NCBI GenBank assembly: GCA_045585895.1
Contig: JAZMZI010000011.1
Coordinates: 8,468 to 72,467, forward strand
Direction: 5' to 3'
Length of the DNA stretch: 64,000 nt
Origin: Eubacteriales bacterium
GTDB taxonomy: Bacteria > Bacillota > Clostridia > Oscillospirales > CAG-272
Positions 29,001 through 56,704 of the stretch are shown piece after piece; within the stretch, counting starts at the first letter, position 1, and the number at the start of each line of letters is the position of its first letter. Position numbers and translations under genes: made by a program. The notes beneath the pieces are model-generated. The model did no database searches. It had not been told where the DNA came from and saw only the letters and a list, made by a program, of their open reading frames with translations.

Positions 29001-29345
29001 TAAAGAGCTTTGATCCTTAGGCTTGGTGGTTTCTTCGGGAGCGTTAGTGTCGCTACCTTCGGGAGCGTTAGTGTTACTGCCTTCGGGAGCGTTAGTGTCA
29101 CTGCCTTCGGGAGAAGTGTTGCCGTTCGGAGTTGAGGAGCTGTCTCCGTTTGCGGATGTGGTGCTGCTTTGATCGTTACCGCTCTCACTACCTTCGCTGT
29201 TCTGATTGGTAGTAGAGGTTACGGATCCGCTATCGGTACCGCTGCTTTGTTCGGGATCGGAGGGGTCGTTGCACGACGCCAAAACTCCGAGGATCATAAT
29301 AAAAGCTACGATCAAAGAGATAGAGGAAATTAGCTTTCTTTTCAT
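23079..29345 (-). CDS. Very large (2088 aa) predicted surface lipoprotein with repeated modules and Asp-box motifs; function unknown
   Basis: Signal peptide with lipobox (ILGVLASC). Ser/Thr/Asn/Gly/Glu-rich linker with PEGS(D/N)TNA repeats. Central ~1100 aa unassigned. C-terminal (X-Y)(X-Y)Y modules. SxDxGxTW Asp-boxes YSIDGGKTW (x2) and TADGGQTW. RBS GAAAGGAA. Confidence 0.9.
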   Translation of the reverse strand: MKRKLISSISLIVAFIMILGVLASCNDPSDPEQSSGTDSGSVTSTTNQNSEGSESGNDQSSTTSANGDSSSTPNGNTSPEGSDTNAPEGSNTNAPEGSDTNAPEETTKPKDQSSLEVQNDTLVQMSNSLANGVQAYFTDASRTHYSIQNLEMTMNYARSYKAPQLVESIKNTQGVPYIQNTMDVFVRMNSGNTYYASGSTKSAEANLYRFGYYYYQGLFEFQNFAAKEYNLGDPNHINLRTQFTSSYKQQIQPNYVRDANGDIIKDENGIITYFYEILEPEEGKSADPYFSFKNNFSYATADNNAIVIVAKTVGSTTGAQFWVDTGNDFDPTQSTNIYFVNDGEFHAYYISLDKLPGYTDATTLKGIRFDPNGEVGDGLVIQSITLGKAMDYPASLSINRHFHVYSNKMHHAIQFAVTQRTEDIKEVGMLTEIATSTVSKLMIVTKDDKTYTSLDAGFSWDDVVAVGFDVTEAGIFGFILPDDPAAGNIKVTEKDGMYVIEQTRTPVLADGTEGVIIPSINTEKKDENDNYIHADGVKNNGNDFYLAQRVYTDENHDFAEFLKETGFERHPLISQRVSISEFNSDGASFDRYDPIRGIYILKIATPIGGFYAPYNNPQKNYKVNFQIRSDIDRDIYIMTSGSSGLLECATLMDKDMMLLPVPIEVIKNFSEATGERNLYNIDDPTFSEAIFCLSLSQNVRYTYTLINLYQNWGNFPLKQLSQIPFHCPYYHLSTGVTETNCILPWLGMVNVGKTNSSTLPDFRSMSAPYWKSQPQHNSSGAHTWLKYTDADGNTYMSECKENIITSYGPTYAEVVWHNLSDDGKIKITYTHMEMPQTDENRTYYTMEYEFLEDLTINNFKDNFVFYEVTDNNPEGTYKKIGYLDENNEYQVIDSNQDETAVPEKILGDDCPYFSFFMMPDWYRDNGSAEGYSNVAFLIYNSSFKIGGVDKDYNFLIKNPKDYVSLTLNEAGTIEFKAGDKITINAILLPWGSQEYEDDPANRLNAPHSTGYTEYTYSTVLPDGTLYMDKNVRDVRENTLLNPLTATSTTDEVLDSPFLPKIKSKDGKTATFTISGGINNVTIRVYGFEKLTNPKVEILDENGNWVEYVISSKNNPVHGLYHYYDGYMVNYDEDGTYSYSFVTDMTNAESKTFRVSAYEDFAGWPSDPTAPENENLLNIYTDPEELQSTISAMGHFFSKVEMHEFEDAPGTFYASVYVSSNKDIGESYCTLYDSEAKDNMGQYLVVKYRVPNTNSEPVSGFQFFTSTTTNNATEAGNFSYTPVMDGEWHVVVFDLSKAGLNSYIADGSGNYTTRLLRFDIFNKSFNDPDVHIDFAYIGIDSDLREICKLEEGKFETIDFVEGGQTNKLNVETAEVIIKTYLDPESGYTQSTLAYGSVLDYINGVKPGASSAGSKGGGVTTINGIKLPETKTLFVQGWCCVEGGIQKYVYSIDGGKTWKDCAGTPIDVTTANNDAILTTAEGKAGPSGFQFSDREASRTNGRFQNDNGLTIDLNGVEGKVDVIFAAVPVKEPTSLVLLFCMEEINCSEKPAPVDTAFDHNDIAEKVNGLSFFGSSEVKNENGVDYVDIYGKVGTTEKPIPEAYVTLFTSLSSAETGKYLVIKYRVPSDNKESVGNFQFFTSTAGTTVVGSECFNHSLVEDGEWHVEVIDLSKISTLKFTSGSDGTYSAKFLRFDIFNKEFTNEDTHINIAYAGIYASIEDICEMEKGGVDTLTLFEGSKQTKIDVNTATAQNPYLDPSSGYTVATDVPFASAIDYINGVYINKGNNSSENGVTVINGCTVSRVGTLLLQGWCCADGGVEKYVYSIDGGKTWTQLIGTADSAGDAVYNAAQSRSGVTFADQVNSRTNGSFQAGSSGKGLTIDLSAQSGSIDITVAAVPKAATDKLILLYVLEEVNCDFVSILDENSEYEEILIDFGSQVDSVNEAANIKANGSAMTMPSYTSVTTYQFTNKGTTYDYAVRLKGWSVVEGGVSKYVWTADGGQTWNDCQGHWYEASDAMITSGSNKSNVPLTNDATTKKNGGWQGDGLIIDLSAYKDSTEPLDIYVCAVLDGSTDKVIVLYHLDDVTITPVQ
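23600..25700 (-). repeat. Intragenic tandem duplication: two ~1.12-kb (~374-aa) module copies, plus a third partial Y module at 23079-23600
   Basis: An identical 21-mer GGTACTGGTAAAGAACTGGAA occurs at 24426-24446 and 25548-25568, giving a 1122-nt period. Protein pairs: VSGFQFFTSTT/VGNFQFFTSTA, GEWHVVVFDLSK/GEWHVEVIDLSK, LLRFDIFNKSF/FLRFDIFNKEF, QGWCCVEGGIQKYVYSIDGGKTW/QGWCCADGGVEKYVYSIDGGKTW. Confidence 0.85.
29043..29122 (-). repeat. 24-bp in-frame tandem repeat (3.3 copies) encoding PEGS(D/N)TNA
   Basis: CTTCGGGAGCGTTAGTGT(C/T)(G/A)CT(A/G)C at 29043-29066, 29067-29090 and 29091-29114, with a partial fourth copy. Confidence 0.9.
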
Positions 29346-40913: not shown

Positions 40914-43559
40914 TTAACCTAATTTAGAGATAGCTGCGAGGATACCGTCGAGGTTTTCGCGGTATTTAGCCATCTTTGCCTTTTCGCCCTCAACGACTGC
41001 GGCGGGAGCCTTGGCTACGAAGCCTTGGTTGGAGAGCTTTTTCTCGATCCTCTCGATCTCGCCTTCAAGCTTCTTCTTTTCGCCCTCAAGTCTTGCCTTT
41101 TCCTTCTCAAAGTCGATAATGTCGGACAAAGGAAGGAAGATGGTAGCGGAGTCGGTGATGATCTGGAGAGCATTGTCTGCGCTGACCTCTGTTTCCGCGA
41201 ATGCGTCTGCTACGATAAGTTCGGAAGCGGATGCGAGGCGGGCGAAGAACGCCTCGGCAGACGCGAAGATGTCCTGATACTTGGTAGCAAGGTAGACCTT
41301 TGCTTTCTTGGATGGAGGAACGTTCATTTCGCTTCTTCTCGCGCGGATAGCCTTGATGGCGTCGATTATCTTGGTCATCTTCTCGGCGTCGGCAGTGAAG
41401 TTAAGAGCCGCAGAAGCTTTGGGATATTCGCTTATCATAATGCTTTCCGCATCGCGGGGAAGTGCCTGATAAATTTCCTCGGTGATGAAGGGCATAAAGG
41501 GATGGAGGAGCTTGAGGATGCCCTCAAGAACGTATGCGATGACGTTCTGGCAAACTGCGTTCGCCTCGGTGTCCTTTTCGTTAAGACGCGCCTTGGCAAG
41601 CTCGATGTACCAGTCGCAGAAGATGTCCCATGCGAAGCTGTAGATAGCGCCGAGAGCAACGCCGACCTCGAAGTTGTCGAGGTTGGTAACTACGTTTTCG
41701 CAGAGGGAGTTGAACTCGTTAAGAATCCACTTGTCTTCAAGAGCAAGCTTGTCGGTCTCGGGAAGCTTTATCTCATCAATGGTGAGGTTCATTCTAACGA
41801 ATCTCGACGCGTTCCAGAGCTTATTTGCAAAGTTTCTTGCCGCCTCTATCTTTTCGTCGGAGAATCTCATATCGTTTCCGGGGGAGTTGCCGGTTGCAAG
41901 AGCGAATCGGAGCGCGTCTGCACCGTACTGCTTGATGATTTCAAGGGGGTCGATACCGTTTCCGAGAGACTTGGACATTTTTCTGCCCTGCGCGTCTCTG
42001 ACGAGACCGTGAATGAATACGGTGGAGAAGGGTTTCTCGTCCATATGCTCAAGACCCGAGAAGATCATAAAGAATACCCAGAAGGTGATGATGTCGTAGC
42101 CGGTTACGAGAACGTCGGTGGGGTAATATCTCTTGAGATCCTCGGTGTTTTCGGGCCAGCCGAGAGTAGAGAAGGGCCAAAGAGCCGAGGAGAACCAGGT
42201 GTCAAGCACGTCATCGTCCTGTCTTACCTTTGCGCCGCACTTGGGGCACTTCTCAATGTCGGTCTTGGAGACCGTCATCTCGCCGCACTCGTCGCAATAG
42301 AAGGCGGGAATTCTGTGACCCCACCAGAGCTGACGGGAGATGCACCAGTCGAGGATGTTGTTCATCCAGTTGAAATAGTTCTTGGAGAAGCGCTCGGGAA
42401 CGAAGTTGATGCTGCCGTTCTCGACCGCCTCGATAGCGGGAGCGGCGAGGGGCTTCATCTTAACGAACCACTGGTCGCTGGTCATAGGCTCAACCGTAGT
42501 GCCGCAACGGTAGCAAACGCCAACGTTGTGGTCGTGAGGCTCGGTCTTAACGAGGTAGCCCTCCGCCTCGAGGTCGGCAACCAGCGCCTTACGGCAGGCA
42601 TATCTGTCCATACCCTCGTACTTGCCCGCGTATGCGTTCATCGTAGCGTCGTCGTTCATGACCTTGATCTGCTCAAGGTTGTGTCTCTGACCGACCATGA
42701 AGTCGTTGGGGTCGTGTGCGGGGGTGATCTTAACGCAACCCGTACCGAAGCCGATCTCAACGTAATCGTCGGCGATAACGGGTATCTCGCGGTTTACTAT
42801 GGGAAGAAGAACCTTCTTTCCAATAAGGTGCTTGGTGTTTTCGTCCTCGGGGTTGACCGCAACGGCGGTATCACCGAACATGGTCTCGGGACGGGTGGTA
42901 GCTACCTCGACGTAGCCGTCTTCACCGATAATGGGGTACTTGATGTGCCAGAAGTTGCCGGGCTGATCCTTATACTCAACCTCTGCGTCGGAAAGAGCCG
43001 TCAAGCAACGGGGGCACCAGTTGATGATACGGTATCCGCGATAGATGAGTCCCTTGTTATAAAGGTTTACGAACACCTCGCGAACTGCCTTGGAGCAGCC
43101 TTCGTCCATGGTAAATCTCTGTCTCGTCCAGTCGCAGGAAGCGCCCAGCTTCTTGAGCTGGCTTGTGATGCGAGCCTCATAGGTGTCCTTCCAGCCCCAG
43201 ACGCGTTCGAGAAATTTTTCACGACCGAGGTCGTATCTTGTAAGTCCCTCGTCAACGCGGAGTCTTTCCTCGACCTTGATCTGCGTTGCAATGCCGGCGT
43301 GGTCGGTGCCGGGTACCCAAAGAGTGTTGAAGCCCTGCATTCTCTTGTAACGTACGAGGATATCCTGTAAGGTCTCGTCAAGGGCGTGACCCATATGGAG
43401 CTGACCCGTGACGTTTGGAGGGGGAATAACTATGGAGAAAGAGGGGTTATTGTTATTTTTGTCGGGTGTGAAGTAACCCTTTTCACACCACTCGGCGTAG
43501 ATTCTGTCCTCAAAATCGGAGGGAGAATACGTCTTTGGTAATTCGTTGTAGGAATTCAT
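40914..43559 (-). CDS. valS: Valine--tRNA ligase
   Basis: 881 aa. HIGH-region [20 protein letters not shown] in [11 protein letters not shown]-terminal coiled coil. Confidence 0.97.
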
Positions 43560-43599
43560 TTTTTCGTTCCTTTCAATATATTTTCTTGAATTTTAAACA

Positions 43600-43830
43600 A
43601 AATAAAAAATCCTGATATGAAAAACATATCAGGACGTAAAAATACGCGGTACCACCTAATTTACACTTCAAAAGTGTCACTCAAAGGCTTTAACGTTGCC
43701 ACCGTTGCGAGCTACACGGAAAACTCTTTCACCCACACCGCTCGCGAGCTACCTTCAGTCAATCTCTGTACGCGCTCACACCGCCCGCGCGCTCTCTGAA
43801 AAAGGGAAATGACTTACTCCTCTCGGTCAA
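43600..43830 (-). promoter_or_regulatory. T-box riboswitch leader of valS (specifier GUA, Val)
   Basis: On the minus strand: AGAGAG bay plus distal loop GGCGGTGTGAG. AGTA...GAAGGTAG specifier loop, with GUA at 43750-43752. T-box sequence AATTAGGTGGTACCGCG (43646-43662). Terminator TCCTGATATG/CATATCAGGA (43610-43634) followed by a T-run. Confidence 0.88.
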
Positions 43831-43852
43831 AGCGTTTTATATTTTACGATAT

Positions 43853-43881
43853 ATTATAACATTGGCTTATTGTTTTGTCAA
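43853..43881 (-). promoter_or_regulatory. Perfect consensus sigma-70 promoter (TTGACA-N17-TATAAT) driving the valS T-box leader
   Basis: On the minus strand, TTGACA at 43876-43881, 17-nt spacer, TATAAT at 43853-43858. Confidence 0.6.
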
Positions 43882-43965
43882 TAGCTTTTGATAATTTTAC
43901 CCAAATTTGCGTTATGATCTTCCGAAAACCTACTTGCTTATATGCAATAAATATAAATAAACATC

Positions 43966-43994
43966 TTGATTAATCACTTTCTTTGTGATATAAT
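43966..43994 (+). promoter_or_regulatory. Sigma-70 promoter with extended -10 (TTGATT-N17-TGATATAAT) for the LysR gene
   Basis: TTGATT at 43966-43971, TATAAT at 43989-43994. The 10-bp palindrome TGATTAATCA (43967-43976) overlaps the -35. Confidence 0.5.
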
Positions 43995-44034
43995 ATAAAA
44001 TCATAGATATCAGACTGTAAAGTGAGGGATGACG

Positions 44035-44958
44035 ATGAATATACTTCACATGAAATATGCGGTCGAGGTAGCTCGCCTCGGTTCTCTGAACAAAGCCGCT
44101 GAAACGCTGAGAATAGCCCAGCCCAATATAAGCCGTTCCATCAAGGAGCTTGAGGCGGACTTGGGTATAACTATATTTAACAGAAGCGCAAAGGGAATGG
44201 AGCTCACTCCCGACGGCGAAGAGTTTCTTGACTATGCCCGTGATATTTTGCACAGGATAGACAAAATGGAGCAATCCTACCGCGACGGCTCACATAAAAA
44301 ACATAAGTTTTCTATCTCCGTGCCCCGCGCGTGTTATATATCTGCGGCTCTTGCCGAGTTTTCAAAAAGCATAGGCGATGAAGACGTGGAGATCTATTAC
44401 AAGGAGACTAACTCCAAGAAGACCGTAAAGAAGCTTTTGGAAAACGAGTACAAGCTCGGCATAATCCGTTACTCCGAAAATTACGACAGATATTATAAAA
44501 CTATGCTTGAAGAGAAGGGATTGAATTACGAGCTTGTTGCTGAGTTTTCTTACGTTCTTTTGATGAGCCGCGATAATCCTCTGGCGCAGAAGGAAACGAT
44601 AACCTACGACGATCTCTCGTCTTATATAGAGATCGCTCACGCAGACCCGTACGTGCCTACCCTTTCAATGTCAAAGGTGTTCCGCGAGGAGCTTCCCGAT
44701 AATATAGGTCAGAGAATATTTATCTTCGAAAGAGCGAGCCAGTTCGATCTTCTTTCGGAAAATCCGAAAACCTTTATGTGGGTATCCCCCGCATCTCAGC
44801 AGATACTTGACAGATACAATCTGGTTCAGCGGGTATGTGAGGGCAATAAGAAGATCTATAAAGACGTTCTTATCTACCATAAGGGATACAGGCTGACGAA
44901 GCTTGATAAGGATTTTATTACCTCGCTTTGCGATGCACGGAGAAAATTCATAAAATAA
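44035..44958 (+). CDS. LysR-family transcriptional regulator
   Basis: MNILHMKYAVEVARLGSLNKAAETLRIAQPNISRSIKELE (winged HTH) plus a substrate-binding domain. The ATG at 44035 has better RBS spacing than 44029. Confidence 0.9.
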   Translation: MNILHMKYAVEVARLGSLNKAAETLRIAQPNISRSIKELEADLGITIFNRSAKGMELTPDGEEFLDYARDILHRIDKMEQSYRDGSHKKHKFSISVPRACYISAALAEFSKSIGDEDVEIYYKETNSKKTVKKLLENEYKLGIIRYSENYDRYYKTMLEEKGLNYELVAEFSYVLLMSRDNPLAQKETITYDDLSSYIEIAHADPYVPTLSMSKVFREELPDNIGQRIFIFERASQFDLLSENPKTFMWVSPASQQILDRYNLVQRVCEGNKKIYKDVLIYHKGYRLTKLDKDFITSLCDARRKFIK

Positions 44959-45177
44959 ACTATCTTTATTCCGAAAATCTTTTAGAGATTCATACCTTTA
45001 TATCCTCAGTGATATTACCGATATAACATTTTAATAATTCCCAAGTGCGCGTATTTGTGATAAAATATATGCGGAAATGTGGGAGTGCGACGCAATGCGG
45101 CATATTCTGTCCTAACGGACGCGATGTGCGGCGCGGCGTAACAGCGTATCGATCAATATATCAGGAGGACATATAAA

Positions 45178-47874
45178 ATGGAAAACAGAACTTACGAGAT
45201 CGTAGACAGCGTGGAGAGCTTGCATGAGGCTCTTGCCCGTGTAAGAACGGCGCAGAAGAAATTTGCGACCTACACTCAGGAGCAGGTCGACAGGATCTTT
45301 TTGGCGGCTGCGTCTGCGGCGGATAAGGCAAGGATAAGCCTTGCGAAGCTGGCAGTGGAAGAAACGGGAATGGGTATCATTGAGGATAAGGTGATAAAGA
45401 ATCACTATGCCGCAGAGTATATCTACAATGCGTACAAGGATACCAAGACCTGCGGTGTTATCGAAGAGGATAAGGCTTTCGGTATCACGAAGATAGCGGA
45501 GCCTATCGGCGTGGTTGCCGCAGTTATTCCTACCACGAATCCTACTTCTACCGCGATCTTTAAGTGCTTATTGGCACTTAAGACCCGTAACGCGATCATA
45601 ATCAGCCCTCACCCCAGAGCCAAGAGAGCTACTATTGCGGCGGCAAAGCTGGTTCTTGAAGCGGCGGTTGCGGCGGGCGCTCCCGAAGGGATCATCGATT
45701 GGATAGATATTCCTTCTCTTGAAATGACTAACACCGTAATGAGGGAAGCCGATATAATCCTTGCTACAGGAGGTCCCGGAATGGTCAAGGCGGCGTATTC
45801 CTCGGGAAAGCCCGCTCTCGGTGTCGGCGCAGGCAATACCCCCGCGATCATCGACGACACGGCGGATATTCTTCTTGCGGTCAACTCGATCATTCACTCC
45901 AAGACCTTTGATAACGGTATGATCTGCGCGTCGGAGCAGTCGGTTATCGTTCTTGAAAATATATACGACACGGTAAAGGCGGAATTTGCCGCAAGAGGAT
46001 GCTACTTCCTTGATCCCGCCGAGACCGAAAAGGTCAGAAAGACTATTATCATCAACGGTGCGCTCAACGCGAAGATCGTTGGTCAGAAAGCGGCAAAAAT
46101 AGCAGAGCTTGCGGGAGTTTCGGTTCCCGTGGGCACGAAGATACTTATCGGTGAAGTAGAGAGTGTAGAGCTTTCCGAAGAATTTGCTCACGAAAAGCTT
46201 TCCCCCGTACTTGCTATGTACCGAGCAAAGAGCTTTGACGACGCCCTCGATAAGGCAGACGTTCTCGTTGCGGACGGTGGTTACGGACACACCTCCTCGG
46301 TCTATCTCAACGAGACTACCGAAACCGAAAAGCTTGCTAAATTCTCGGCTCGTATGAAGACCTGCCGTATTCTCGTTAATACTCCCTCCGCACACGGCGG
46401 TATCGGAGACCTTTACAACTTCAGACTCGCTCCCTCGCTCACTTTGGGATGCGGAAGCTGGGGCGGTAACAGCGTTTCCGAAAACGTAGGTGTCAAGCAC
46501 CTCTTAAACATTAAGACAGTAGCCGAGAGGAGAGAAAATATGCTTTGGTTCAGATCCCCCGAGAAAATATATATCAAGAAGGGTTGCCTTCCCGTAGCGC
46601 TGGATGAGCTTCGCTCTGTCAGAGGCGCGAAAAAGGCATTCATCGTAACCGACACGTTTCTTTATGAGAACGGTTACACCAAGCCCATCACTGACAAGCT
46701 TGACGAGATGGGTATTCAGCACACTACGTTCTGGAGCGTTCAGCCCGATCCCACTCTTGCAAACGCTATGGAGGGCGCGGCTCAGATGAGAGCCTTTAAG
46801 CCCGATACTATCATAGCGCTGGGCGGTGGCTCGGCTATGGACGCGGGAAAGATCATGTGGGTGCTTTACGAGCATCCCGAAGCAGACTTTATGGATATGG
46901 CAATGAGATTTATTGATATCCGTAAGAGAGTCTATACTTTTCCCAAGATGGGTGAGAAGGCGTACTTTATTGCAATCCCCACCTCGGCAGGCACGGGTTC
47001 AGAGGTCACGCCCTTCGCAGTAATTACCGATGAAAAGACCGGCGTTAAATATCCTCTTGCCGACTACGAGCTTCTTCCCAATATGGCGATCATTGATACC
47101 GATTTTCATATGTCGGCTCCCAAGGGGCTTACCGCCGCTTCGGGTATCGACGCAGTAACTCACGCAGTTGAGGCGTATGCCGCAATGCTTGCCACCGACT
47201 ACACCGACGGGCTTGCGATTCAGGCTCTCAAGAATATCTTCAAGTATCTTCCCAGAGCTTACGATAACGGTCAGGCCGACGTGGAGGCAAGAGAGAAGAT
47301 GGCTAACGCGGCAACTATTGCGGGTATGGCGTTCGCAAACGCATTCCTCGGTGTATGTCACTCTATGGCTCATAAGCTCGGCGCGTTCCACCATCTGCCT
47401 CACGGAGTTGCCAACGCTCTTATGATCGAGGAGGTACTTCGCTTCAACGCAAGCGAGGCTCCCGCGAAGATGGGTACGTTCTCACAGTACGATCATCCTC
47501 ATACTCTTGAGAGATACGCCGAGATAGCAGACGCGCTTTGTCTTGGCGGTAACACAAACGAAGAAAAGCTTGAAAACCTTATTAAGGCAATAAACGATCT
47601 GAAGGCTCGCGTTGGAATCAAGGCGACCATCAAGGATTACGGCGTCGATGAATCCGACTTTCTTGCCCGTCTCGACGATATGGTAGAGCAGGCATTCGAC
47701 GATCAGTGTACGGGTGCCAATCCCCGTTATCCCCTTATGAGTGAGATCCGTCAGATGTACCTAAACGCGTACTACGGAGATCATTTTACCGAGCAGGAGA
47801 TGCCCGACAGAGATATTATAAGCGTTGAAGTCGATGCAGTCAAGGCTCCCTACCTCAAGGGCAAAAAGTCGTAA
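45178..47874 (+). CDS. adhE: Bifunctional acetaldehyde-CoA / alcohol dehydrogenase
   Basis: 898 aa. N-terminal aldehyde dehydrogenase domain ([10 protein letters not shown] catalytic Cys region). C-terminal Fe-ADH domain ([10 protein letters not shown], histidine cluster). RBS AGGAGG. Confidence 0.95.
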
Positions 47875-47892
47875 ATCAAGGAGGAAAGAGAA

Positions 47893-48642
47893 ATGAAACT
47901 TGACAGAGTAATTGCAGTAAGAAATAATAAGACCGTTTATCGCGACGGTGACAGATGCGTTAAGGTGTTTAACGCAGAGTATTCCAAGGCTGACGTGCTT
48001 AACGAGGCCCTCAATCAGGCGAGGATCGAAGAGACGGGACTCAATATTCCCAAGGTACTTGAGGTCACTATGATCGACGGCAAGTGGGCTATCGTTTCGG
48101 AGTATATAAAGGGCAAAACTCTCGCTCAGCTTATTGCTGAGGATCCCGAAAAGAAAGAAGAATATATTGATCTTCTCGTTGACATACAGATGACGGTCCA
48201 CGGAAAGACCTGCCCCCTCCTTAACAAGCTTAAGGACAAGATGAGCCGCAAGATCGCAGAAACCGATTTCGACGCCACTACAAGATACGATCTTCATACC
48301 CGTCTTGAAGGTATGCCCAAGCACACCAAGGTCTGCCACGGAGACTTTAATCCCTCGAATATCATAATTGCCGAGGACGGCACGCCCTATATTCTCGACT
48401 GGTCGCACGCTACTCAAGGTAACGCATCTGCAGACGTAGCGCGCACGTATCTTTTGTTTTGGCTCAACGGCGATACGGAGGGAGCGGAGTTTTATCTTAA
48501 TCTCTTCTGCAAAAAGAGCGATACCGCAAAGCAGTACGTTCAGAAGTGGATGCCTATCGTAGCCGCGTCTCAGTCGGTCAAGGGCAACGAAAAGGAAAGA
48601 GAATTGCTTTCAAGCTGGGTAGGCGTTGTAGATTATCAGTAA
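47893..48642 (+). CDS. Protein-kinase-like fold protein (aminoglycoside/choline-kinase APH family)
   Basis: 249 aa. Catalytic-loop motif CHGDFNPSNIII followed by ILDWS. RBS AAGGAGG. Only 18 nt downstream of adhE. Confidence 0.8.
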   Translation: MKLDRVIAVRNNKTVYRDGDRCVKVFNAEYSKADVLNEALNQARIEETGLNIPKVLEVTMIDGKWAIVSEYIKGKTLAQLIAEDPEKKEEYIDLLVDIQMTVHGKTCPLLNKLKDKMSRKIAETDFDATTRYDLHTRLEGMPKHTKVCHGDFNPSNIIIAEDGTPYILDWSHATQGNASADVARTYLLFWLNGDTEGAEFYLNLFCKKSDTAKQYVQKWMPIVAASQSVKGNEKERELLSSWVGVVDYQ

Positions 48643-48725
48643 TTAAGGTAAGATCACGGGAAGCTCAGAACCATTCGGAAGGGTTTTGAGCCGTTCTCGC
48701 AAAATACATAGAAAGAGGAAAAGTT

Positions 48726-48968
48726 ATGATTAAAATTACGGTTTGTATTGGAAGCTCTTGCCATATCAAGGGCTCCCGTCAGGTAGTAGCACAGCTTCAG
48801 GATCTTATAGCGGAACATGCCCTTTCGGAGAAGGTAGAGCTTGGCGGAACCTTCTGCATGGGCAACTGTCAGAGCGGCGTTTGCGTTACGGTAGACGACA
48901 AATTCTGTTCGGTCACTCCCGAAACCGTTAACGAGTTCTTTGAGCGCGAAGTTTTGGCGAGGGTATAA
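48726..48968 (+). CDS. Thioredoxin-like [2Fe-2S] ferredoxin (NuoE/HymA-like), copy 1
   Basis: 80 aa. Cys pattern CIGSSC (Cx4C) ... CMGNC (Cx3C). Confidence 0.8.
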   Translation: MIKITVCIGSSCHIKGSRQVVAQLQDLIAEHALSEKVELGGTFCMGNCQSGVCVTVDDKFCSVTPETVNEFFEREVLARV

Positions 48969-48970
48969 GT

Positions 48971-49234
48971 ATGATTTTCGTTCAGATCTGCGTTGGCTCG
49001 TCCTGTCACCTTAAAGGCTCACAGGAGATAGTCGAGCTGATGGAGAGCGCAATAAAGGAGTATAATATCGAGGACGAGGTAGTTCTTTCGGGTAGCTTTT
49101 GCATCGGAAAGTGTAACCGTGTCGGCGTGACCGTTCAGGTCGACGATGAAGTGCACGTCGGTGTCACAAAAGAGAATTTCAGGGAGTTCTTCAAGAAGAA
49201 CATACTTGAAGCTATAGAAAAAGAAGGGGTTTGA
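48971..49234 (+). CDS. Thioredoxin-like [2Fe-2S] ferredoxin, copy 2 (tandem paralog)
   Basis: 87 aa. CVGSSC ... CIGKC. 2-nt gap from copy 1. Confidence 0.8.
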   Translation: MIFVQICVGSSCHLKGSQEIVELMESAIKEYNIEDEVVLSGSFCIGKCNRVGVTVQVDDEVHVGVTKENFREFFKKNILEAIEKEGV

Positions 49235-49239
49235 CGGTT

Positions 49240-50919
49240 ATGGCAAATTGCTTGACTTTAAAAAAATCAAACTGCAAAAACTGCTATAAGTGTATTCGAC
49301 ACTGCCCCGTAAAAGCGATACGTTTTTCGGGAAATCAGGCTCATATTATAGGTAACGAGTGCATTTTGTGCGGCCACTGTTTCGTGGTTTGCCCTCAAAA
49401 TGCCAAGGAGATAGTGGACGGCACAGAAAAGGCAAGAGTTTTGCTTCAAGGGGGCGCCCCTGTTGTCGTTAGCCTTGCGCCTTCATTTATAGCTAATTAT
49501 GACGGCATTGGAATTGAATCTATGCGCCGCGCGTTGAAAAAACTTGGATTTTTCGATGTTGAGGAGACCGCTATCGGAGCGACGATCGTAAAAAGCGAAT
49601 ATGAGCGTATGCTGCTTGAAGAGGAGAGAGACGTAATTATATCCTCGTGCTGCCATTCCGTGAATCTGCTTATCCAAAAGCATCATCCCGCTTGCTTGCC
49701 TTATCTTGCCGACGTTATGTCGCCAATGCAGGCGCATTGTGACGACATCAAGAGAAGGATCCCCAACGCCAAGACCGTGTTTATAGGTCCTTGCGTGGCG
49801 AAAAAGGATGAAGCCGAGTACTACGAGGGAATCGTTGACGCGGTGCTGACGTTCGAAGAGCTTACCAATTGGTTAAAAGCCGAGAAGATCGAGCTTGAAA
49901 GGGAAATGGATAATACTCCCGAAAGCAGAGCAAGGTTTTTCCCTACTACGGGCGGAGTCCTTAAGACTATGGCGCAGAATGCTCAAGGCTATACCTATAT
50001 CGCCATTGACGGCGTTGAAAACTGTATTTCTGCTTTAAAAGACATAGAAAGCGGTAAGATACATAAGTGCTTTATCGAAATGTCTGCCTGCGCGGGAAGC
50101 TGTATAGGCGGTCCCGTTATGGAGAAGTATCACAGCACATCCCCCATCAAGGATTATATAATCGTTTCCGAATATGCGGGTGAGCGTGATTTTGAAGTGG
50201 AGCAGCCCGCTCATATGAATTTGAAAAAGAATTTCACGGCAATAGAGCATAAGCTGGCTCAACCTTCCGAGGAGGAGATAGCGTCAGCGCTCCGCCAGAT
50301 GGGCAAATTTAAGGAATCCGACGAATTGAATTGCGGTACCTGCGGTTACAATTCCTGCCGTGAAAAGGCAATAGCCATTATTCAGGGTAAGGCGGAAAGC
50401 TCAATGTGTCTGCCTAACCTCCTTGATAAAGCCGAAAGTTTTTCCGATACCATCGTTAAGAATACCCCCTACGGACTTATCGTTCTTAATGAGAATCTCG
50501 AGGTTCAGCAGATCAATAACTCCGCGTGCAAGATAATGAATATCCGCTCTTCCTCCGACGTTTTGGGTGAGCCCGTCATTCGCATCCTTGACCCCGCCGT
50601 TTTCGCGCAGGTCAAAAACAGTGGAAGAAGCGTGCGAGACAGACGCACCTATCTTGCCGAATATAAGAAATATATCGAGCAGACGGTGGTATACGACCCG
50701 GATTCTCATATGCTGGTCGGAATTATGCGTGACATTACCGACGAAGAGGCAGAGAGAGAAAAGAAGGCGAGACTTAATATGCATACCGTTGAGGTTGCGG
50801 ATACCGTAGTTGAGAAGCAGATGAGGATAGTTCAGGAGATCGCGTCACTTCTCGGTGAGACCGCCGCTGAGACCAAGATCGCTTTGACGAAGCTGAAGGA
50901 GTCTATTGCCGATGAATGA
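49240..50919 (+). CDS. Sensory-type [FeFe]-hydrogenase-like protein (HydS/HfsB-like): 2x[4Fe-4S] plus H-cluster domain plus extra Cys cluster plus PAS
   Basis: CKNCYKCIRHCP and CILCGHCFVVCP. H-domain motifs SSCCHS, GPCVAKKDE and EMSACAGSCIGGP. CGTCGYNSC...C follows. PAS-like TPYGLIVLNENLEVQQINNSACKIMN. The ATG at 49240 is preferred over the TTG at 49231. Confidence 0.8.
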   Translation: MANCLTLKKSNCKNCYKCIRHCPVKAIRFSGNQAHIIGNECILCGHCFVVCPQNAKEIVDGTEKARVLLQGGAPVVVSLAPSFIANYDGIGIESMRRALKKLGFFDVEETAIGATIVKSEYERMLLEEERDVIISSCCHSVNLLIQKHHPACLPYLADVMSPMQAHCDDIKRRIPNAKTVFIGPCVAKKDEAEYYEGIVDAVLTFEELTNWLKAEKIELEREMDNTPESRARFFPTTGGVLKTMAQNAQGYTYIAIDGVENCISALKDIESGKIHKCFIEMSACAGSCIGGPVMEKYHSTSPIKDYIIVSEYAGERDFEVEQPAHMNLKKNFTAIEHKLAQPSEEEIASALRQMGKFKESDELNCGTCGYNSCREKAIAIIQGKAESSMCLPNLLDKAESFSDTIVKNTPYGLIVLNENLEVQQINNSACKIMNIRSSSDVLGEPVIRILDPAVFAQVKNSGRSVRDRRTYLAEYKKYIEQTVVYDPDSHMLVGIMRDITDEEAEREKKARLNMHTVEVADTVVEKQMRIVQEIASLLGETAAETKIALTKLKESIADE

Positions 50920-52084
50920 TCTTTGTGCAGATATAGGATATAAAAGCATCAATCACGTTGGCGAGGAGCTTTGCGGAGACCACGTTGACGTGGTTGAGGA
51001 AAACGAAAATTCCACCGTTATCGTTCTGGCGGATGGACTTGGTTCGGGAGTTAAGGCGAGTATTCTCTCAACGCTGACTTCAAAGATCATTTCCACCATG
51101 ATGGCGGCGGGACTTCCCATTGAAGAGTGCGTTGCGACTATCGCGGCAACTCTGCCCGTGTGCTCGGTTCGCGGAGTGGCGTATTCGACGTTTACCATCA
51201 TTCATCTTCTCAACAACGAAATAGCCGAGATCATCCAGTACGATAACCCCCACGTTATCGTTATAAGAGATCTTGAGGTATACGATTATCCCAAGACCGA
51301 AATGAATATCGGCGGTAAGAAGATATATAAATCCACCGTGAGATTGCAGGAAGACGACGTGTTTATTGCCATGAGCGACGGCTGTCCTCACGCGGGCATG
51401 GGTGCGAAATACAATTTCGGATGGAAGAGAGAGGATATTGCCGACTATATGGTTGCCTGCGTTGCGGGCGGATATACCGCAAAGAACCTTTCGACTATGT
51501 TAGTGGACGAGTGCGATAATCTGTACGGTCATAAGCCGGGAGACGATACCACCGCCTGCGTTGTCAAGATCCGAAAGAGAGAGCCGATGAACATACTTTT
51601 CGGTCCTCCCTCAAACCGCGACGATGCAAACAGAATGATGTCGCTGTTCTTCTCGAAAGAGGGAAAGCATATTATCTGCGGAGGCACGACCTCGTCTATT
51701 GCCGCTAAATATCTTGGCAAGCCTCTTCGCGCAAGTCTAAGCTTTGAGCGAAGCGACGTTCCCCCTATTGCTACGCTTGAGGGTGTCGATCTCGTTACTG
51801 AGGGCGTTATTACTATGAATAAGGTCATCCAGTACGCCAAGGACTATCTCGGAGAGAACGAGCTTTACGAGGAATGGAGCTTCAGAAAAGACGGAGCCTC
51901 GCTTATCAGCAGACTTCTTTTCGAAGAAGCGACGGATATTAACTTTTACGTTGGAAGGGCGGTCAACCCCGCTCACCAGAATCCCGATCTTCCCATTAAC
52001 TTCAATATAAAGATGAATCTCGTTGAGGAGCTTTCAGATTGTTTGAAAAAGATGGGTAAGAGGATCAAGGTCAGTTATTTTTAA
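50912..52084 (+). CDS. PP2C-type (SpoIIE family) protein serine/threonine phosphatase
   Basis: CGDHVDVVEENENSTVIVLADGLGSGVKASILS, SDGCPHAG. The ATG at 50912 overlaps the upstream stop. About 390 aa with an extra C-terminal domain. Confidence 0.8.
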   Translation: MNDLCADIGYKSINHVGEELCGDHVDVVEENENSTVIVLADGLGSGVKASILSTLTSKIISTMMAAGLPIEECVATIAATLPVCSVRGVAYSTFTIIHLLNNEIAEIIQYDNPHVIVIRDLEVYDYPKTEMNIGGKKIYKSTVRLQEDDVFIAMSDGCPHAGMGAKYNFGWKREDIADYMVACVAGGYTAKNLSTMLVDECDNLYGHKPGDDTTACVVKIRKREPMNILFGPPSNRDDANRMMSLFFSKEGKHIICGGTTSSIAAKYLGKPLRASLSFERSDVPPIATLEGVDLVTEGVITMNKVIQYAKDYLGENELYEEWSFRKDGASLISRLLFEEATDINFYVGRAVNPAHQNPDLPINFNIKMNLVEELSDCLKKMGKRIKVSYF

Positions 52085-52101
52085 AGCAAAAGGAGACAAT
52101 A

Positions 52102-53532
52102 ATGCGTAAGTTTGATACTAAAGTACAGCATTTGAAATATAAGGTTTTGCGTGAGGTCGCACGCCTTGCGTGGGAAGATAAGCTGCTTGAGAACGTTATG
52201 GATATTCCCGAAAAGCTTGCGCCCGGTAAGGAGCCTACAGTGCGCTGCTGCGTATACAAGGAGAGAGCGATCCTCGGAGAGCGAGTAAAGCTCGCCATGG
52301 GCGGTGATAAAAATAACCCAAACATTATCGAGGTTATTGATATTGCGTGTGATGAGTGTCCTGTTGGAGGATTTGAGGTTACCAACGCTTGCCGCGGCTG
52401 TCTTGCTCACCGTTGCGAGGATGTCTGCCGTTTTGGTGCTATCACCTTCGATCACAATCACGTAGCGCATATAGATAAGTCCAAATGTAAGGAGTGCGGT
52501 GCTTGCGCAAAGGTCTGCCCCTATACGGCGATAGTCAGCCGCAAGCGTCCTTGCCAGAACGCTTGTAAGGTAAAAGCAATATCCATGAATGAGGATAAGG
52601 CGGCAGCAATCGATAACTCCAAGTGTATCCAGTGCGGAGCTTGTGTTTATCAGTGTCCCTTCGGCGCGATCACTGATAAGTCCTTTATGCTTAACGCTAT
52701 TGATATTCTCAAAAAGAGTGAGCGTAATACGCGCGGAGGCAATTATAAGGTATATGCGGTTGTAGCTCCTTCAATATCCAGCCAGTTCTCCTATGCGAAA
52801 CTCGGTCAGGTAATAACGGGACTTAAAAAGCTTGGTTTCCACGACGTTATTGAAGCGGCTCTCGGTGCGGACATGGTAGCTATGGAGGAGGCTAAGGAGC
52901 TTTCCGAAAAGGGACTTCTCACAAGCTCTTGCTGTCCCGCGTTCGTTCAGTATATCAAGTCTGCTTTCCCAAATCTTGTAGATCATATTTCTCACAATAT
53001 GTCGCCTATGGCGGTTCTTGCAAAATATATTAAGGAAACAACGCCCAATTCCAAGGTTATATTTATTGGTCCTTGCACTGCGAAGAAGGCAGAGGCTCAG
53101 CTTGAGAATGTTAAGCCTTACGTCGATGCCGTGCTTACCTTTGAAGAGCTTCAGGCTCTCTTTGACAGCCGTGATTTTGACCTCTCTGCCTTTGAGGAAG
53201 GCGTGCTTGATAACGCATCCTACTTTGGACGTATCTTCGCAAGAAGCGGAGGACTTACCGATGCGGCTGCACAGGCTATGAAGGAGCAGAATATCGACTT
53301 TGAAATCAAGCCCGTGGTTTGTGACGGAATAGAGGCGTGTCGTATGGCGCTCCTTAAACTCAGCAAGGGTGCGCTTGACGGCAACTTTATAGAGGGTATG
53401 GCATGTATCGGCGGTTGTATCGGCGGTGCGGGATGCCTCACTCACGGTGAAAAGAATAAGGCTGAGGTCGATAAATACGGCAGAGAGGCACTTGAAAAGA
53501 ATATCAGCGATGCTATTTCGCTGTTAAAATAA
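52102..53532 (+). CDS. [FeFe]-hydrogenase, monomeric group-B-like, canonical H-cluster motifs
   Basis: 476 aa. Ferredoxin-like CKECGACAKVCP and CIQCGACVYQCP. H-cluster motifs TSSCCPAF, GPCTAKKAE and EGMACIGGCIGGAG. RBS AAAGGAGA. Confidence 0.85.
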   Translation: MRKFDTKVQHLKYKVLREVARLAWEDKLLENVMDIPEKLAPGKEPTVRCCVYKERAILGERVKLAMGGDKNNPNIIEVIDIACDECPVGGFEVTNACRGCLAHRCEDVCRFGAITFDHNHVAHIDKSKCKECGACAKVCPYTAIVSRKRPCQNACKVKAISMNEDKAAAIDNSKCIQCGACVYQCPFGAITDKSFMLNAIDILKKSERNTRGGNYKVYAVVAPSISSQFSYAKLGQVITGLKKLGFHDVIEAALGADMVAMEEAKELSEKGLLTSSCCPAFVQYIKSAFPNLVDHISHNMSPMAVLAKYIKETTPNSKVIFIGPCTAKKAEAQLENVKPYVDAVLTFEELQALFDSRDFDLSAFEEGVLDNASYFGRIFARSGGLTDAAAQAMKEQNIDFEIKPVVCDGIEACRMALLKLSKGALDGNFIEGMACIGGCIGGAGCLTHGEKNKAEVDKYGREALEKNISDAISLLK

Positions 53533-53557
53533 TTAATATAAAAAAGGAGATTTTGAA

Positions 53558-54706
53558 ATGGCAAACAGATTTGTACTTAACGAGACCAGCTACCACGGCA
53601 AGGGTGCTGTCGCCGCAGTTGCAACCGAGATTCAGGCAAGAGGATTCAAGAAGGCACTTGTGTGCTCCGATCCCGACCTTATTAAGTTCGGCGTAACCAA
53701 GAAGGTAACAGACGTTCTTGATGCAGCGAATATCGCATACGACGTGTTCAGCGACATCAAGCCCAATCCTACTATTGAAAACGTTCAGAACGGTGTTGAG
53801 GCATTCAAGAATAGCGGCGCGGACTGTATCGTTGCTATCGGCGGCGGATCTTCTATGGATACCGCTAAGGCTGTGGGTATTATCATCGAGAACCCCGAGT
53901 TTGCCGACGTGAGAAGTCTTGAAGGCGTTGCTCCCACCAAGAATAAGTGTACTCCTATTATTGCGGTTCCCACCACCGCGGGTACTGCCGCTGAAGTTAC
54001 TATAAACTACGTTATCACCGACGTTCAGAATAACCGCAAGATGGTCTGCGTAGACGTTCACGACATCCCCGTCGTTGCAGTTGTTGACCCCGATATGACG
54101 GCTACTATGCCCAAGGGACTTACCGCCGCAACGGGTATGGATGCTCTTACTCATGCTATTGAGGGCTATATCACCAAGGGCGCTTGGGAATTAAGCGATA
54201 TGTTCCATATCAAGGCTATCGAAATCATCGCAAAGAGCCTCAGAGCCGCAGTTGACAATACCGACGAGGGCAGAGAAGGAATGGCGCTCGGTCAGTATAT
54301 CGCAGGTATGGGCTTCTCCAACGTAGGACTCGGTATCGTTCATGCTATGGCGCATCCTCTCGGTGCACTTTACGACACCCCCCACGGTGTAGCAAACGCT
54401 ATCATTCTTCCTACCGTTATGGAGTATAACGCTCCCGCTACCGGTGAAAAGTACAGAGATATCGCCGTTGCTATGGGCGTTGAGGGCGTAGCGGATATGA
54501 CGATTGAGGAAGCAAGAGCTGCCGCTATCAATGCGGTAAAGCAGCTTTCGATTGACGTCGGAATCCCCGCAGACCTTAAGGAGATCGTTAAGGCTGAGGA
54601 CGTCGACTTCCTTTCCGAGTCTGCATTTGCCGATGCTTGCCGTCCCGGTAATCCCCGCGAGACCAGCGTAGAGGAGATCAAAGAGCTTTATCTCAAGCTT
54701 ATGTAA
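53558..54706 (+). CDS. Iron-containing alcohol dehydrogenase (FucO / butanol dehydrogenase-like)
   Basis: 382 aa. IAIGGGSSMDTAKAV. Metal-binding His residues in LTHAIEGY and VHAMAHPLG. Confidence 0.9.
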   Translation: MANRFVLNETSYHGKGAVAAVATEIQARGFKKALVCSDPDLIKFGVTKKVTDVLDAANIAYDVFSDIKPNPTIENVQNGVEAFKNSGADCIVAIGGGSSMDTAKAVGIIIENPEFADVRSLEGVAPTKNKCTPIIAVPTTAGTAAEVTINYVITDVQNNRKMVCVDVHDIPVVAVVDPDMTATMPKGLTAATGMDALTHAIEGYITKGAWELSDMFHIKAIEIIAKSLRAAVDNTDEGREGMALGQYIAGMGFSNVGLGIVHAMAHPLGALYDTPHGVANAIILPTVMEYNAPATGEKYRDIAVAMGVEGVADMTIEEARAAAINAVKQLSIDVGIPADLKEIVKAEDVDFLSESAFADACRPGNPRETSVEEIKELYLKLM

Positions 54707-54716
54707 TATAGTCAAC

Positions 54717-54747
54717 AAAAAAGGCACCCGCGCGGTGCCTTTTTTTG
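54717..54747 (+). terminator. Intrinsic terminator ending the adhE-hydrogenase-adh gene string
   Basis: AAAAAA-GGCACC-CGCGC-GGTGCC-TTTTTTT (stem 54723-54728/54734-54739). Confidence 0.7.
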
Positions 54748-54781
54748 TTGATTTGTGAATTGAGAATTTTGTCGAATCCTA

Positions 54782-54810
54782 TTGACTTTTGCAGAAAAAA
54801 GTAGTATACT
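54782..54810 (+). promoter_or_regulatory. Sigma-70 promoter (TTGACT-N17-TATACT) for the glycine riboswitch transcript
   Basis: TTGACT at 54782-54787, 17-nt spacer, TATACT at 54805-54810. Confidence 0.5.
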
Positions 54811-54844
54811 GAACAAGTTGAACTGAATAGAGCTAAATGAAATC

Positions 54845-54999
54845 AGCAGGAGATAAGGCGCAAGCCTTTCCAAAGGGGTAATACTCTCGGGTGTCTTATG
54901 ACGGAGACTGCTGACGGATAGCAATCTGGAGAAGTCCGCTGTGCGCGGATGCCGAAGGGGCAAGGGTAAAACCGTAATCTCTCAGGCAAAAGGACAGAT
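54845..54999 (+). promoter_or_regulatory. Tandem glycine riboswitch (two aptamers)
   Basis: Aptamer 1, 54845-54912: AGCAGGAGA...CCAAAGGGGTAA...CTCTCGGGTGTCTTATGACGGAGACTGCT. Aptamer 2, 54924-54999: ATCTGGAGAAG...GCCGAAGGGGCAA...CTCTCAGGCAAAAGGACAGAT. It sits upstream of an AGCS symporter, a classic glycine-riboswitch target. Confidence 0.88.
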
Positions 55000-55049
55000 C
55001 TTTTACATTGAATTTTCCACAGGGAGATCTTGTTGTATGTCTTATCGCT

Positions 55050-55085
55050 TTCACCGCTATCCGTAAGGTTGCGGTGTTTTTTTGT
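55050..55085 (+). terminator. Riboswitch expression-platform terminator
   Basis: CACCGC (55052-55057) / GCGGTG (55071-55076), followed by TTTTTTTGTTTTG. Confidence 0.65.
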
Positions 55086-55126
55086 TTTGTTCGGTTTAAA
55101 AATTTTTATAGGAGGTTCATTATATA

Positions 55127-56704
55127 ATGGACAAAATTTTACAGGTGGTGGAGAATGTCAACGGCGAAATAAACGGCGTCGTATGGGGCACGTTCGGTCT
55201 GCTTCTGCTTATCGGTACGGGCATAATCGTCACCATTCTCACCAAGTTCTTTCAGGTGTCCCACATTGGCATGTGGTTCAAGAATACCCTTGGCAGTCTT
55301 TTCAACAAGGACGTTATCAAGCACAGTAAGGAAAAGGGCTCTATCTCTCCCTTCCAAGCACTTTGTACCGCTCTTGCTGCAACGGTAGGAACGGGTAATA
55401 TCGCGGGTGTTGCTGCGGCTATATGCATAGGCGGCGCAGGTGCGGTGTTCTGGATGTGGGTTGCCGCATTCTTCGGTATGATGACCAACTACGCTGAAAA
55501 CGTTCTCGGTATTTATTTCCGACGCAAGAACGAAAACGGTGAGTGGTCTGGCGGAGCTATGTACTACCTTGCCGACGGTCTTGGAGGATACAAATTCAAC
55601 GACTGTCACGGACAGATAAGCTTTAAAAAGCTCGGTAAGGTGCTTGCTATCCTTTTCTGTATCTTCACTATGCTTGCATCCTTCGGTATCGGAAGCATGG
55701 GTCAGGTCAACAAGATAGTTACCAACGTTGCGTCTGCTTTTGACGTTTCATCGCTTTCCTCTATTGAGGTTTTCTCGGGCGTTTCTCTCTATAACATCAT
55801 CCTCGGCGCGGTTATTATGCTTCTTACCGCACTTATAACTCTCGGCGGACTTAAGAGAATTGCAAGCGTTGCGGAAAAGATCGTTCCCTTTATGGTAGTT
55901 CTTTTCGTTATCGGAAGCCTTATTATTATAGGTGTAAACTATCAAAATGTTCTTCCCGCATTCAAGGCTATATTCGTGAATGCGTTCAAACCCGAAGCAT
56001 TCGTCGGCGGCGGTATCGGAGCTGTTATCGGTAAAGTCGTAACTCAGGGATTCAAGCGCGGAGTATTCTCTAACGAGGCAGGTCTCGGCTCGTCCGTTAT
56101 GGTTCACTCCAATTCCAACATTAAAGAGCCCGTAAAGCAGGGTATGTGGGGTATCTTTGAGGTGTTTGCAGATACTATGGTAGTGTGCACTATGACTGCA
56201 CTCGTTATCCTTACCGCAGGCGGTCTTGAAGGAGGCGTATTTAACGTTGTTACGGGTGAGATAGCAGAGGGTTATTCCGATGCAACTCTCGTTGGCGGTG
56301 CATTCAACTCCGTATTCTCTTGGGGCAATATCGGTGAAAAGTTCATAGCTATCGCTATGTTCCTCTTCGCGTTTACTACCGTTCTCGGTTGGTCTCATTA
56401 CGGAAGCAAGGCTTGGGAGTATCTCTTTGGCGCAAAGACTACGATCGTGTTCCGTATTATCCACGTATGCACCGTTATCTTCGGCGCAATTCTTACGTCC
56501 TCCTTGGCTTGGGATATTTCCGATACCTTCAACGGACTTATGATGATCCCCAACCTCATAGGCGTTCTCGTGCTTTCTCCTCTGGTCGTAAAAATAACTA
56601 CCAACTATCTCCGCAGAGTGAAGAAGGGCGAAGACATCGAGCCTATGTATAACTTCGATCCCGAAACTCAAGCGGCTGAAAAAGAGCGCGAGATAGACGA
56701 GTGA
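55127..56704 (+). CDS. Alanine/glycine:cation (sodium) symporter, AGCS family
   Basis: 525 aa, polytopic. SPFQALCTALAATVGTGNIAGVA motif. RBS TAGGAGG. Confidence 0.9.
   Translation: MDKILQVVENVNGEINGVVWGTFGLLLLIGTGIIVTILTKFFQVSHIGMWFKNTLGSLFNKDVIKHSKEKGSISPFQALCTALAATVGTGNIAGVAAAICIGGAGAVFWMWVAAFFGMMTNYAENVLGIYFRRKNENGEWSGGAMYYLADGLGGYKFNDCHGQISFKKLGKVLAILFCIFTMLASFGIGSMGQVNKIVTNVASAFDVSSLSSIEVFSGVSLYNIILGAVIMLLTALITLGGLKRIASVAEKIVPFMVVLFVIGSLIIIGVNYQNVLPAFKAIFVNAFKPEAFVGGGIGAVIGKVVTQGFKRGVFSNEAGLGSSVMVHSNSNIKEPVKQGMWGIFEVFADTMVVCTMTALVILTAGGLEGGVFNVVTGEIAEGYSDATLVGGAFNSVFSWGNIGEKFIAIAMFLFAFTTVLGWSHYGSKAWEYLFGAKTTIVFRIIHVCTVIFGAILTSSLAWDISDTFNGLMMIPNLIGVLVLSPLVVKITTNYLRRVKKGEDIEPMYNFDPETQAAEKEREIDE

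Follow-up and report, generated by a model that had tools for sequence, protein, structure and literature searches.

A stretch of 64,000 nucleotides from an Eubacteriales bacterium (GenBank assembly GCA_045585895.1, contig JAZMZI010000011.1; this whole stretch is called the window here, and coordinates are counted from its first letter) carries a string of fermentation genes. These encode a bifunctional acetaldehyde-CoA/alcohol dehydrogenase (AdhE), an APH/choline-kinase-fold protein, two short ferredoxins (Fds), a HydS-type putative sensory [FeFe]-hydrogenase, a PP2C phosphatase, a second [FeFe]-hydrogenase (HydA2) and an iron-dependent alcohol dehydrogenase (Fe-ADH). Our analysis indicates that this unit is probably the orthologue of the 'high-H2' fermentation operon on plasmid pRUMAL01 of Ruminococcus albus 7, combining electron sinks with a putative H2 sensor and signal path. 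Among relatives, the kinase-like protein and the phosphatase each occur without the other, and the kinase-like protein tracks the electron-sink enzymes. The closest relatives of the source organism, an uncultured member of the Clostridia, are metagenome-assembled genomes (MAGs) from animal guts, mostly of ruminants.

Correspondence with the R. albus cluster

Genes and domains were assigned by hidden Markov model (HMM) scans, with Pfam and NCBIfam models, of ten proteins in and around the unit. Eight genes, from adhE to the Fe-ADH gene, follow one another unbroken on the + strand, with a LysR gene upstream. The gaps between them, from adhE on, are 18, 83, 2, 5, −8, 17 and 25 nt, the negative value being the overlap of the HydS and PP2C genes. 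The unit is closed by an intrinsic terminator (54717-54745, +; a 12-bp stem with 5 GC pairs, then a T-run), the strongest in the scanned region, 43400-55300. An earlier note on this DNA, made from its letters and open reading frames, had described a tightly spaced single-strand string ending at one strong terminator; its genes, junctions and terminator were confirmed, and the HMM scans bore out its domain calls, with PAS and PP2C both detected.

AdhE (45178-47874, +) matched the equivalog model NF010378 with 1390 bits, against a cut-off of 951. The LysR-family regulator (44029-44958, +; HTH_1 at 69 bits, plus LysR_substrate) is encoded 219 nt upstream of adhE and is a candidate DNA-binding component of the cluster.

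In a tblastn search of a plasmid collection, HydS had its best match in pRUMAL01 of R. albus 7 (70% identity, covering 99% of the protein), and so did the kinase-like protein (76%). The genes RUMAL_RS17345-17385 of this megaplasmid encode, on one strand, LysR, Rex, AdhE, a phosphotransferase, two Fds, HydS, SpoIIE and HydA2. Apart from rex, this is the gene order of the window from LysR to HydA2, likewise on a single strand. Besides HydS and the kinase-like protein, the identities between counterparts are 62% for LysR, 75% for AdhE, 73% for Fd1, 59% for Fd2, 80% for PP2C and 76% for HydA2, and the H-cluster motifs of the two HydS proteins are identical. The earlier note had pointed to kinship with the hydS-hydA2 set of R. 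albus and with the hfs genes of Thermoanaerobacterium saccharolyticum; this was right, and with R. albus the synteny holds gene for gene.

The two clusters differ in three places. R. albus has rex within the cluster, whereas the gene list and HMM scan of the window contain no rex between LysR and adhE. The window adds a FucO-type gene after HydA2. The gap between the kinase and Fd1 genes is 83 nt in the window, where it holds a stem-loop, and 17 nt in R. albus; its length varies across relatives.

Expression of the eight-gene R. albus cluster dropped 111-fold when an H2 consumer was co-cultured (Greening et al. 2019; PMC6776011), and ethanol production declines alongside cluster expression (PMC6776011; PMC10838669). 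A neighbouring Ser/Thr protein kinase in R. albus is attributed to Zheng et al. 2014, as cited in PMC5707799. The R. albus APH-fold gene occupies the place expected for that kinase and is a candidate for it.

The coupling of the sensor to adhE had been put forward in the earlier note as novel, as had the use of an APH-fold protein instead of a Hanks-type kinase. Neither is new, because the published R. albus cluster (PMC6776011) has both, and the coupling is found in Bacteroidales MAGs as well. The window is a further case of the R. albus-type cluster, not a new kind of system.

A second known system, hfsABCD of T. saccharolyticum and T. thermosaccharolyticum, was compared by its published description. 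It shares with the window the core order of PAS-containing hydrogenase (HfsB), SpoIIE-type phosphatase (HfsC) and ferredoxin-linked hydrogenase (HfsD), a small upstream gene (HfsA) and a regulatory link to adhE and ethanol yield. It differs in that the papers describe no kinase and that adhE lies elsewhere on the chromosome (Tsac_0416). Deletion of hfsA or hfsB raised the adhE transcript and alcohol dehydrogenase (ADH) activity, a phenotype unlike that of whole-operon deletion (PMC5707799).

The sensor module and the group B hydrogenase

HydS (49240-50919, +) was assigned to the HydS-type (group C) putative sensory [FeFe]-hydrogenases. It contains two Fer4 domains, for two [4Fe-4S] clusters, followed by the H-domain (Fe_hyd_lg_C, 171 bits), a four-Cys FeS motif (PF04060, 38 bits), a PAS domain and an invariant C-terminal helix. 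The PAS domain scored 22.0 bits on the full protein, just below the cut-off of 22.6, and 25.3 bits on the isolated C-terminus. It was matched in 15 of 15 HydS orthologues, whose profile matches the PAS structures of WalK and CitA. The HydS type with a C-terminal PAS, as first read from the letters, was thus upheld.

All four Cys ligands of the HydS H-cluster are kept, in the motifs SSCCHS, GPCVAKK and EMSACAGSC. In the second sphere (CpI numbering), M497 is replaced by Ser, Gly stands at the M353 position and Cys299 is retained. The exchange of M497 for Ser has been reported for HydS of Thermotoga maritima (TmHydS), a biochemically characterised group C sensory enzyme of low activity (PMC10055695), which shares with the window HydS the order of H-domain then PAS. 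TmHydS differs in carrying Ala at the position of the proton-transfer Cys, a residue that the window HydS keeps and that is kept in only 17% of group C sequences (PMC10055695).

About 35 residues after the PAS domain (HydS residues ~520-555; window 50800-50916) are nearly invariant, even at 35-39% HydS identity. Because of this near-invariance, the post-PAS helix is the best candidate surface for phosphatase contact or output.

The two Fds encoded upstream of HydS are short, thioredoxin-like [2Fe-2S] proteins. Fd1 (48726-48968, +; 80 aa) and Fd2 (48971-49234, +; 87 aa) matched PF01257 (2Fe-2S_thioredx) with 34.4 and 34.6 bits, respectively, against a cut-off of 24.8, and both carry the Cys ligands C7-x4-C12...C44-x3-C48. 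Fd1 matches the C-terminal half of NuoE/HoxE. Fd2 is missing from several related loci (for example L022, L037, L048, L051, L064, L075 and L079). These proteins are probably redox partners of HydS.

The phosphatase (50912-52084, +) is of the SpoIIE/RsbU type (PF07228, 50 bits against 25), with the PP2C domain in residues 1-225. Its metal-binding motifs are invariant (GD23, D41GLGSG, SD156G, GD211D212). An AlphaFold 2 (AF2) model with a predicted local distance difference test (pLDDT) score of 83 gave Foldseek matches to SpoIIE, RsbU and RsbX, the best being SpoIIE 5mqh (E = 7e-14). The HydS and PP2C genes share 8 nt at their junction, and in nearly all relatives too they overlap or abut. PP2C is probably a stoichiometric, translationally coupled partner of HydS.

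Residues 226-390 of the phosphatase (window 51587-52081) form a distinct alpha/beta domain. It is strongly conserved, and its motifs CGGTTS, DGAS and NPAHQ are invariant. It had no Pfam match, and the sole structural match, to the phosphoheptose isomerase 3trj (E = 0.0016), was weak and SIS-like; the whole-protein Foldseek search was dominated by the PP2C domain and gave no identification of the C-terminal one. This domain may be a metabolite-binding input domain. The protein resembles RsbU, RsbP and SpoIIE in PP2C subfamily, fold and metal-binding motifs, and in having a sensory input, here PAS, tied to the phosphatase. It differs from them in that the input domain is on a separate protein, HydS, and in its additional C-terminal domain; moreover, the window unit is without a STAS substrate or a GHKL anti-sigma kinase.

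HydA2 (52102-53532, +) is a group B1, HfsD-type monomeric [FeFe]-hydrogenase, matched by TIGR04105 with 580 bits against 450. Its motifs are TSSCCPAF, GPCTAKK and EGMACIGGC. Cys299 and Met497 are retained, as in the catalytic type, and Gly is found at the M353 position in HydA2 also. Judged from its sequence, HydA2 would be a catalytic H2 producer, presumably dependent on ferredoxin. R. albus HydA2 (L081 12481-13917), called group A1 in PMC6776011, likewise scores as group B1 (TIGR04105, 577 bits against 450).

The kinase-like protein, its distribution and the limits of the unit

The gene that follows adhE (47893-48642, +) encodes a 249-aa protein of the APH/choline-kinase fold (PF01636, 56 bits against 23.2). 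Its canonical kinase residues are complete: K24, E38, H149-G150-D151, N156 and D169. Its AF2 model (pLDDT 96) gave APH(3'), the choline kinase LicA and APH(4) as the top matches in a Foldseek search of the PDB. With these and with TIGR02172 proteins it shares the fold, the Brenner-type HGDxxxxN motif and the D-W motif; it differs in being short and in forming its own family. Partial matches to RIO1 and Pkinase were found, and the N-lobe weakly resembles StkP. A test for a Hanks-type kinase failed, PF00069 scoring 22 bits against 31.7 over residues 144-181 only. The protein also fell under the cut-off of TIGR02172 (70.6 against 228 bits) and of every named NCBIfam kinase.

The family of this protein comprises 357 cluster representatives at E < 1e-30, with a hydrogenase/adhE genomic context. 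Lys24 is invariant, whereas the catalytic Asp151 or the metal-binding Asp169 is substituted in 13 of 40 diverse family representatives (P0121-P0270). One such variant, in which HGK replaces HGD (L097 7001-7738), lies directly 5' of a group B hydrogenase gene and is translationally coupled to it. This suggests that some of the family can do without phosphotransfer, and part of it may be pseudokinases.

To survey relatives of the kinase-like protein, species-representative genomes were scanned. At least 549 stretches encode one, and the best 80 were compared; these have 72-90% kinase identity and belong to MAGs of uncultured Clostridia, for the most part from the guts of ruminants and other animals. 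Among these 80, an adhE gene lay directly 5' of the kinase gene in 62 of 66 loci, and Fd-HydS-PP2C lay 3' of it in 45 of 61. Where both flanks were present, 36 of 54 loci had the full arrangement, 14 of 54 had adhE-kinase followed by unrelated genes, and the remaining 4 of 54 had the kinase and sensor module without adhE. In some loci a separate Fe-ADH seemed to lie 5' of the kinase gene; these were rejected, being adhE genes cut at contig ends.

Of the 51 loci with enough flank, 34 have a LysR gene upstream in the same orientation, and several relatives carry rex within the unit. The earlier statement that the operon had no DNA-binding output is weak in this light.

More distant lineages were sampled through 50%-identity cluster representatives and their contigs, about 12 lineages in all. 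At 54% kinase identity the order is Rex-AdhE-kinase-Fd-HydS-PP2C-HydA2, at 47% (L101 2257-5981) it is Rex-kinase-Fd-HydS-PP2C, and at 41% it is kinase-Fd-HydS-PP2C-HydA2. In the 47% lineage, NfnAB-like genes and a NAD kinase gene precede the unit, a hint that such units lie within redox-balancing regulons. Collinsella aerofaciens (Actinomycetota; 50% kinase identity) has adhE-kinase only. Four lineages (L088, L096, L097 and L099, one of them a Bacilli MAG), with kinase identities of 50, 44, 36 and 35%, have the kinase gene followed after 1-22 nt by a gene for a hydrogenase of ~470 aa. All four of these hydrogenases pass TIGR04105 (group B1), and HydS, PP2C and AdhE are absent nearby.

The converse arrangement was also found. 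Monoglobus has Fd-HydS-PP2C-HydA2 without the kinase, and Bacteroidales MAGs (L105-L107) have Rex-AdhE-(second Fe-ADH)-Fd-HydS-PP2C-HydA2, again without it; adhE-sensor coupling therefore crosses phyla. Fd-HydS-PP2C-HydA2 turns up as a core in Oscillospiraceae as well as in Monoglobus and Bacteroidales. The stable core is thus the hfsABCD pattern, with adhE and Rex/LysR as frequent additions across phyla and the kinase as a separable component. Homologues of the kinase at ~30% identity occur in unrelated contexts in Clostridium estertheticum and Methylorubrum, and the Niallia record is unannotated there; ~30% was taken as the outer limit of the subfamily.

The earlier note had cast the kinase-like protein as the likely partner of the PP2C, a pairing weakened by the occurrence of each without the other. 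As the two occur independently, the kinase-like protein appears to be an optional accessory that tracks the electron-sink enzymes, group B hydrogenase and AdhE, and not the phosphatase. This separability and the association with group B hydrogenases, which are read from about a dozen sampled lineages, are unmentioned in the hydrogenase literature searched.

At the 3' end of the unit, the last gene (53558-54706, +) had been called Fe-ADH. The family stood, and the assignment was corrected to a FucO-type Fe-dependent lactaldehyde/1,2-propanediol oxidoreductase (NF007911, 670 bits against 537; TIGR02638, 621 against 523). The gene starts 25 nt after HydA2, with a good ribosome-binding site and no terminator in between. 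Because FucO was found downstream of HydA2 in 0 of 80 related loci (the best 80 of at least 549), the gene is a lineage-specific 3' addition to the operon.

The unit is bounded on both sides by regulatory RNA elements. Upstream, a T-box leader (43627-43839, −; 137 bits) lies 5' of the valyl-tRNA synthetase gene valS (40914-43559). Downstream, a glycine riboswitch aptamer (54916-55007, +; 61 bits) heads the next unit, and the gene behind it (55127-56704) belongs to the sodium:alanine symporter family. Elsewhere in the window, a long open reading frame of 2088 aa occupies 23079-29345 on the − strand.

Signal flow, rival explanations and significance

For the proposed orthologue of the R. albus operon, we infer the following flow of signals. 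Two alternative electron sinks would be available: AdhE, which would convert acetyl-CoA with NADH to ethanol, and HydA2, which would form H2, presumably from reduced ferredoxin. H2 would equilibrate with the H-cluster of HydS, whose second-sphere changes may be of the sensory type. The C-terminal Fe-S site would relay the resulting redox state to PAS and the invariant C-terminal helix, and this would modulate the translationally coupled PP2C. PP2C would in turn alter the phosphorylation of some target protein, with the outcome that adhE and hydA2 would be expressed, and their products possibly active, at high H2. The DNA-binding step would be carried out by LysR in the window and by Rex in relatives.

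Several points weigh against this reading. The sensory role of HydS is described as putative even for the type members of the group (PMC8924675). The window HydS, because it retains the proton-transfer Cys, may keep more catalytic activity than TmHydS, and the T. saccharolyticum literature often takes Hfs as one multi-subunit hydrogenase (PMC13277313). No phospho-target is encoded within the unit, and neither STAS nor HATPase_c (GHKL anti-sigma kinase) had a match in the ten proteins scanned. A search for Rex boxes gave nothing upstream of adhE, and its total matches were near chance level. Co-transcription as one unit is something we infer from the spacing and the single terminator, and the unusually long spacer of 83 nt that separates the kinase gene from Fd1 holds a stem-loop (48657-48699, +; −20.4 kcal/mol, z-score −3.2) without a T-tract.

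One rival explanation makes the APH-fold kinase and PP2C an antagonistic pair acting on one shared phospho-protein, with HydS setting the balance and with the wiring to the alcohol dehydrogenases as a new feature. The window, R. albus and 36 of 54 close loci each have the two genes in one tight unit, the arrangement recurs at 41-54% kinase identity, and in the window the catalytic residues of both proteins are intact. Where both genes occur, they may form such a pair. As a general account it is weakened because each gene occurs without the other: the four kinase-HydA2 lineages, Collinsella and 14 of 54 close loci have the kinase without PP2C, and Monoglobus and Bacteroidales have PP2C without the kinase. 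Loss of Asp151 or Asp169 in 13 of 40 family representatives speaks against it as well, as do the nearest structures, which are small-molecule kinases, and the wiring had already been published for R. albus (PMC6776011). We consider this explanation doubtful.

The structural matches bear on another alternative, in which the APH-fold protein simply phosphorylates a small molecule, for example an antibiotic or metabolite, and is a chance neighbour without a role in hydrogen or ethanol control. APH(3'), choline kinase, APH(4) and capreomycin kinase are its best structural matches, and its ~30%-identity homologues sit in unrelated contexts. Adjacency to adhE and/or a group B hydrogenase gene, however, is kept from 90% down to 35% identity with gaps of 1-23 nt, and spans Clostridia, one Bacilli MAG and Collinsella; because it persists across that range and those taxa, a hitch-hiker gene is quite improbable, the least favoured of the explanations considered. 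Only slightly better placed is the proposal that Fd, HydS, PP2C and HydA2 form one catalytic Hfs complex, in which HydS turns over H2 and the regulatory phenotypes are indirect redox effects. Mutants that lack the hfs operon make less H2 and have lower hydrogenase activity (PMC5707799), HfsABC might, as authors have proposed, work as a hydrogenase without HfsD (PMC13277313), and the proton-transfer Cys of the window HydS would fit turnover. PP2C and PAS, on the other hand, have no known role in a catalytic hydrogenase, and the exchange of M497 for Ser matches the low-activity TmHydS. Deletion of hfsB alone raises hydrogenase activity and adhE expression (PMC5707799), and the group B hydrogenases, named monomeric by TIGR04105, occur without HydS. 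The single-complex and hitch-hiker explanations are both less likely than a sensory unit orthologous to the R. albus operon.

For the kinase-like protein itself, we tentatively propose that it belongs to an unrecognised kinase-like family that partners group B [FeFe]-hydrogenase and AdhE, rather than HydS and PP2C, and controls them post-translationally. It may regulate AdhE or the group B hydrogenase directly, by phosphorylation or by nucleotide-dependent binding. If this is true, such a family would be the post-transcriptional layer hinted at by the hfs mutants, in which ADH activity rose and aldehyde dehydrogenase activity did not.

The phospho-target and output had been described in the earlier note as open and as the novel part of this locus. 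They are indeed open, as is the signalling mechanism according to a 2026 paper (PMC13277313); the novelty did not stand, since the question is family-wide and not one of this window.

In fermenters of the gut and rumen, HydS-type clusters are thought to set the balance between ethanol, acetate and H2, which affects methane emission and biofuel yields. Among uncultured Clostridia of the gut the R. albus architecture is widespread, with at least 549 stretches encoding a relative of the kinase-like protein, and according to a 2025 study, H2 in the human gut is produced mainly by group B hydrogenases. That kinase and phosphatase can be separated shifts where the phospho-target should be sought, and it marks the kinase-like protein as a candidate direct regulator of group B hydrogenases.

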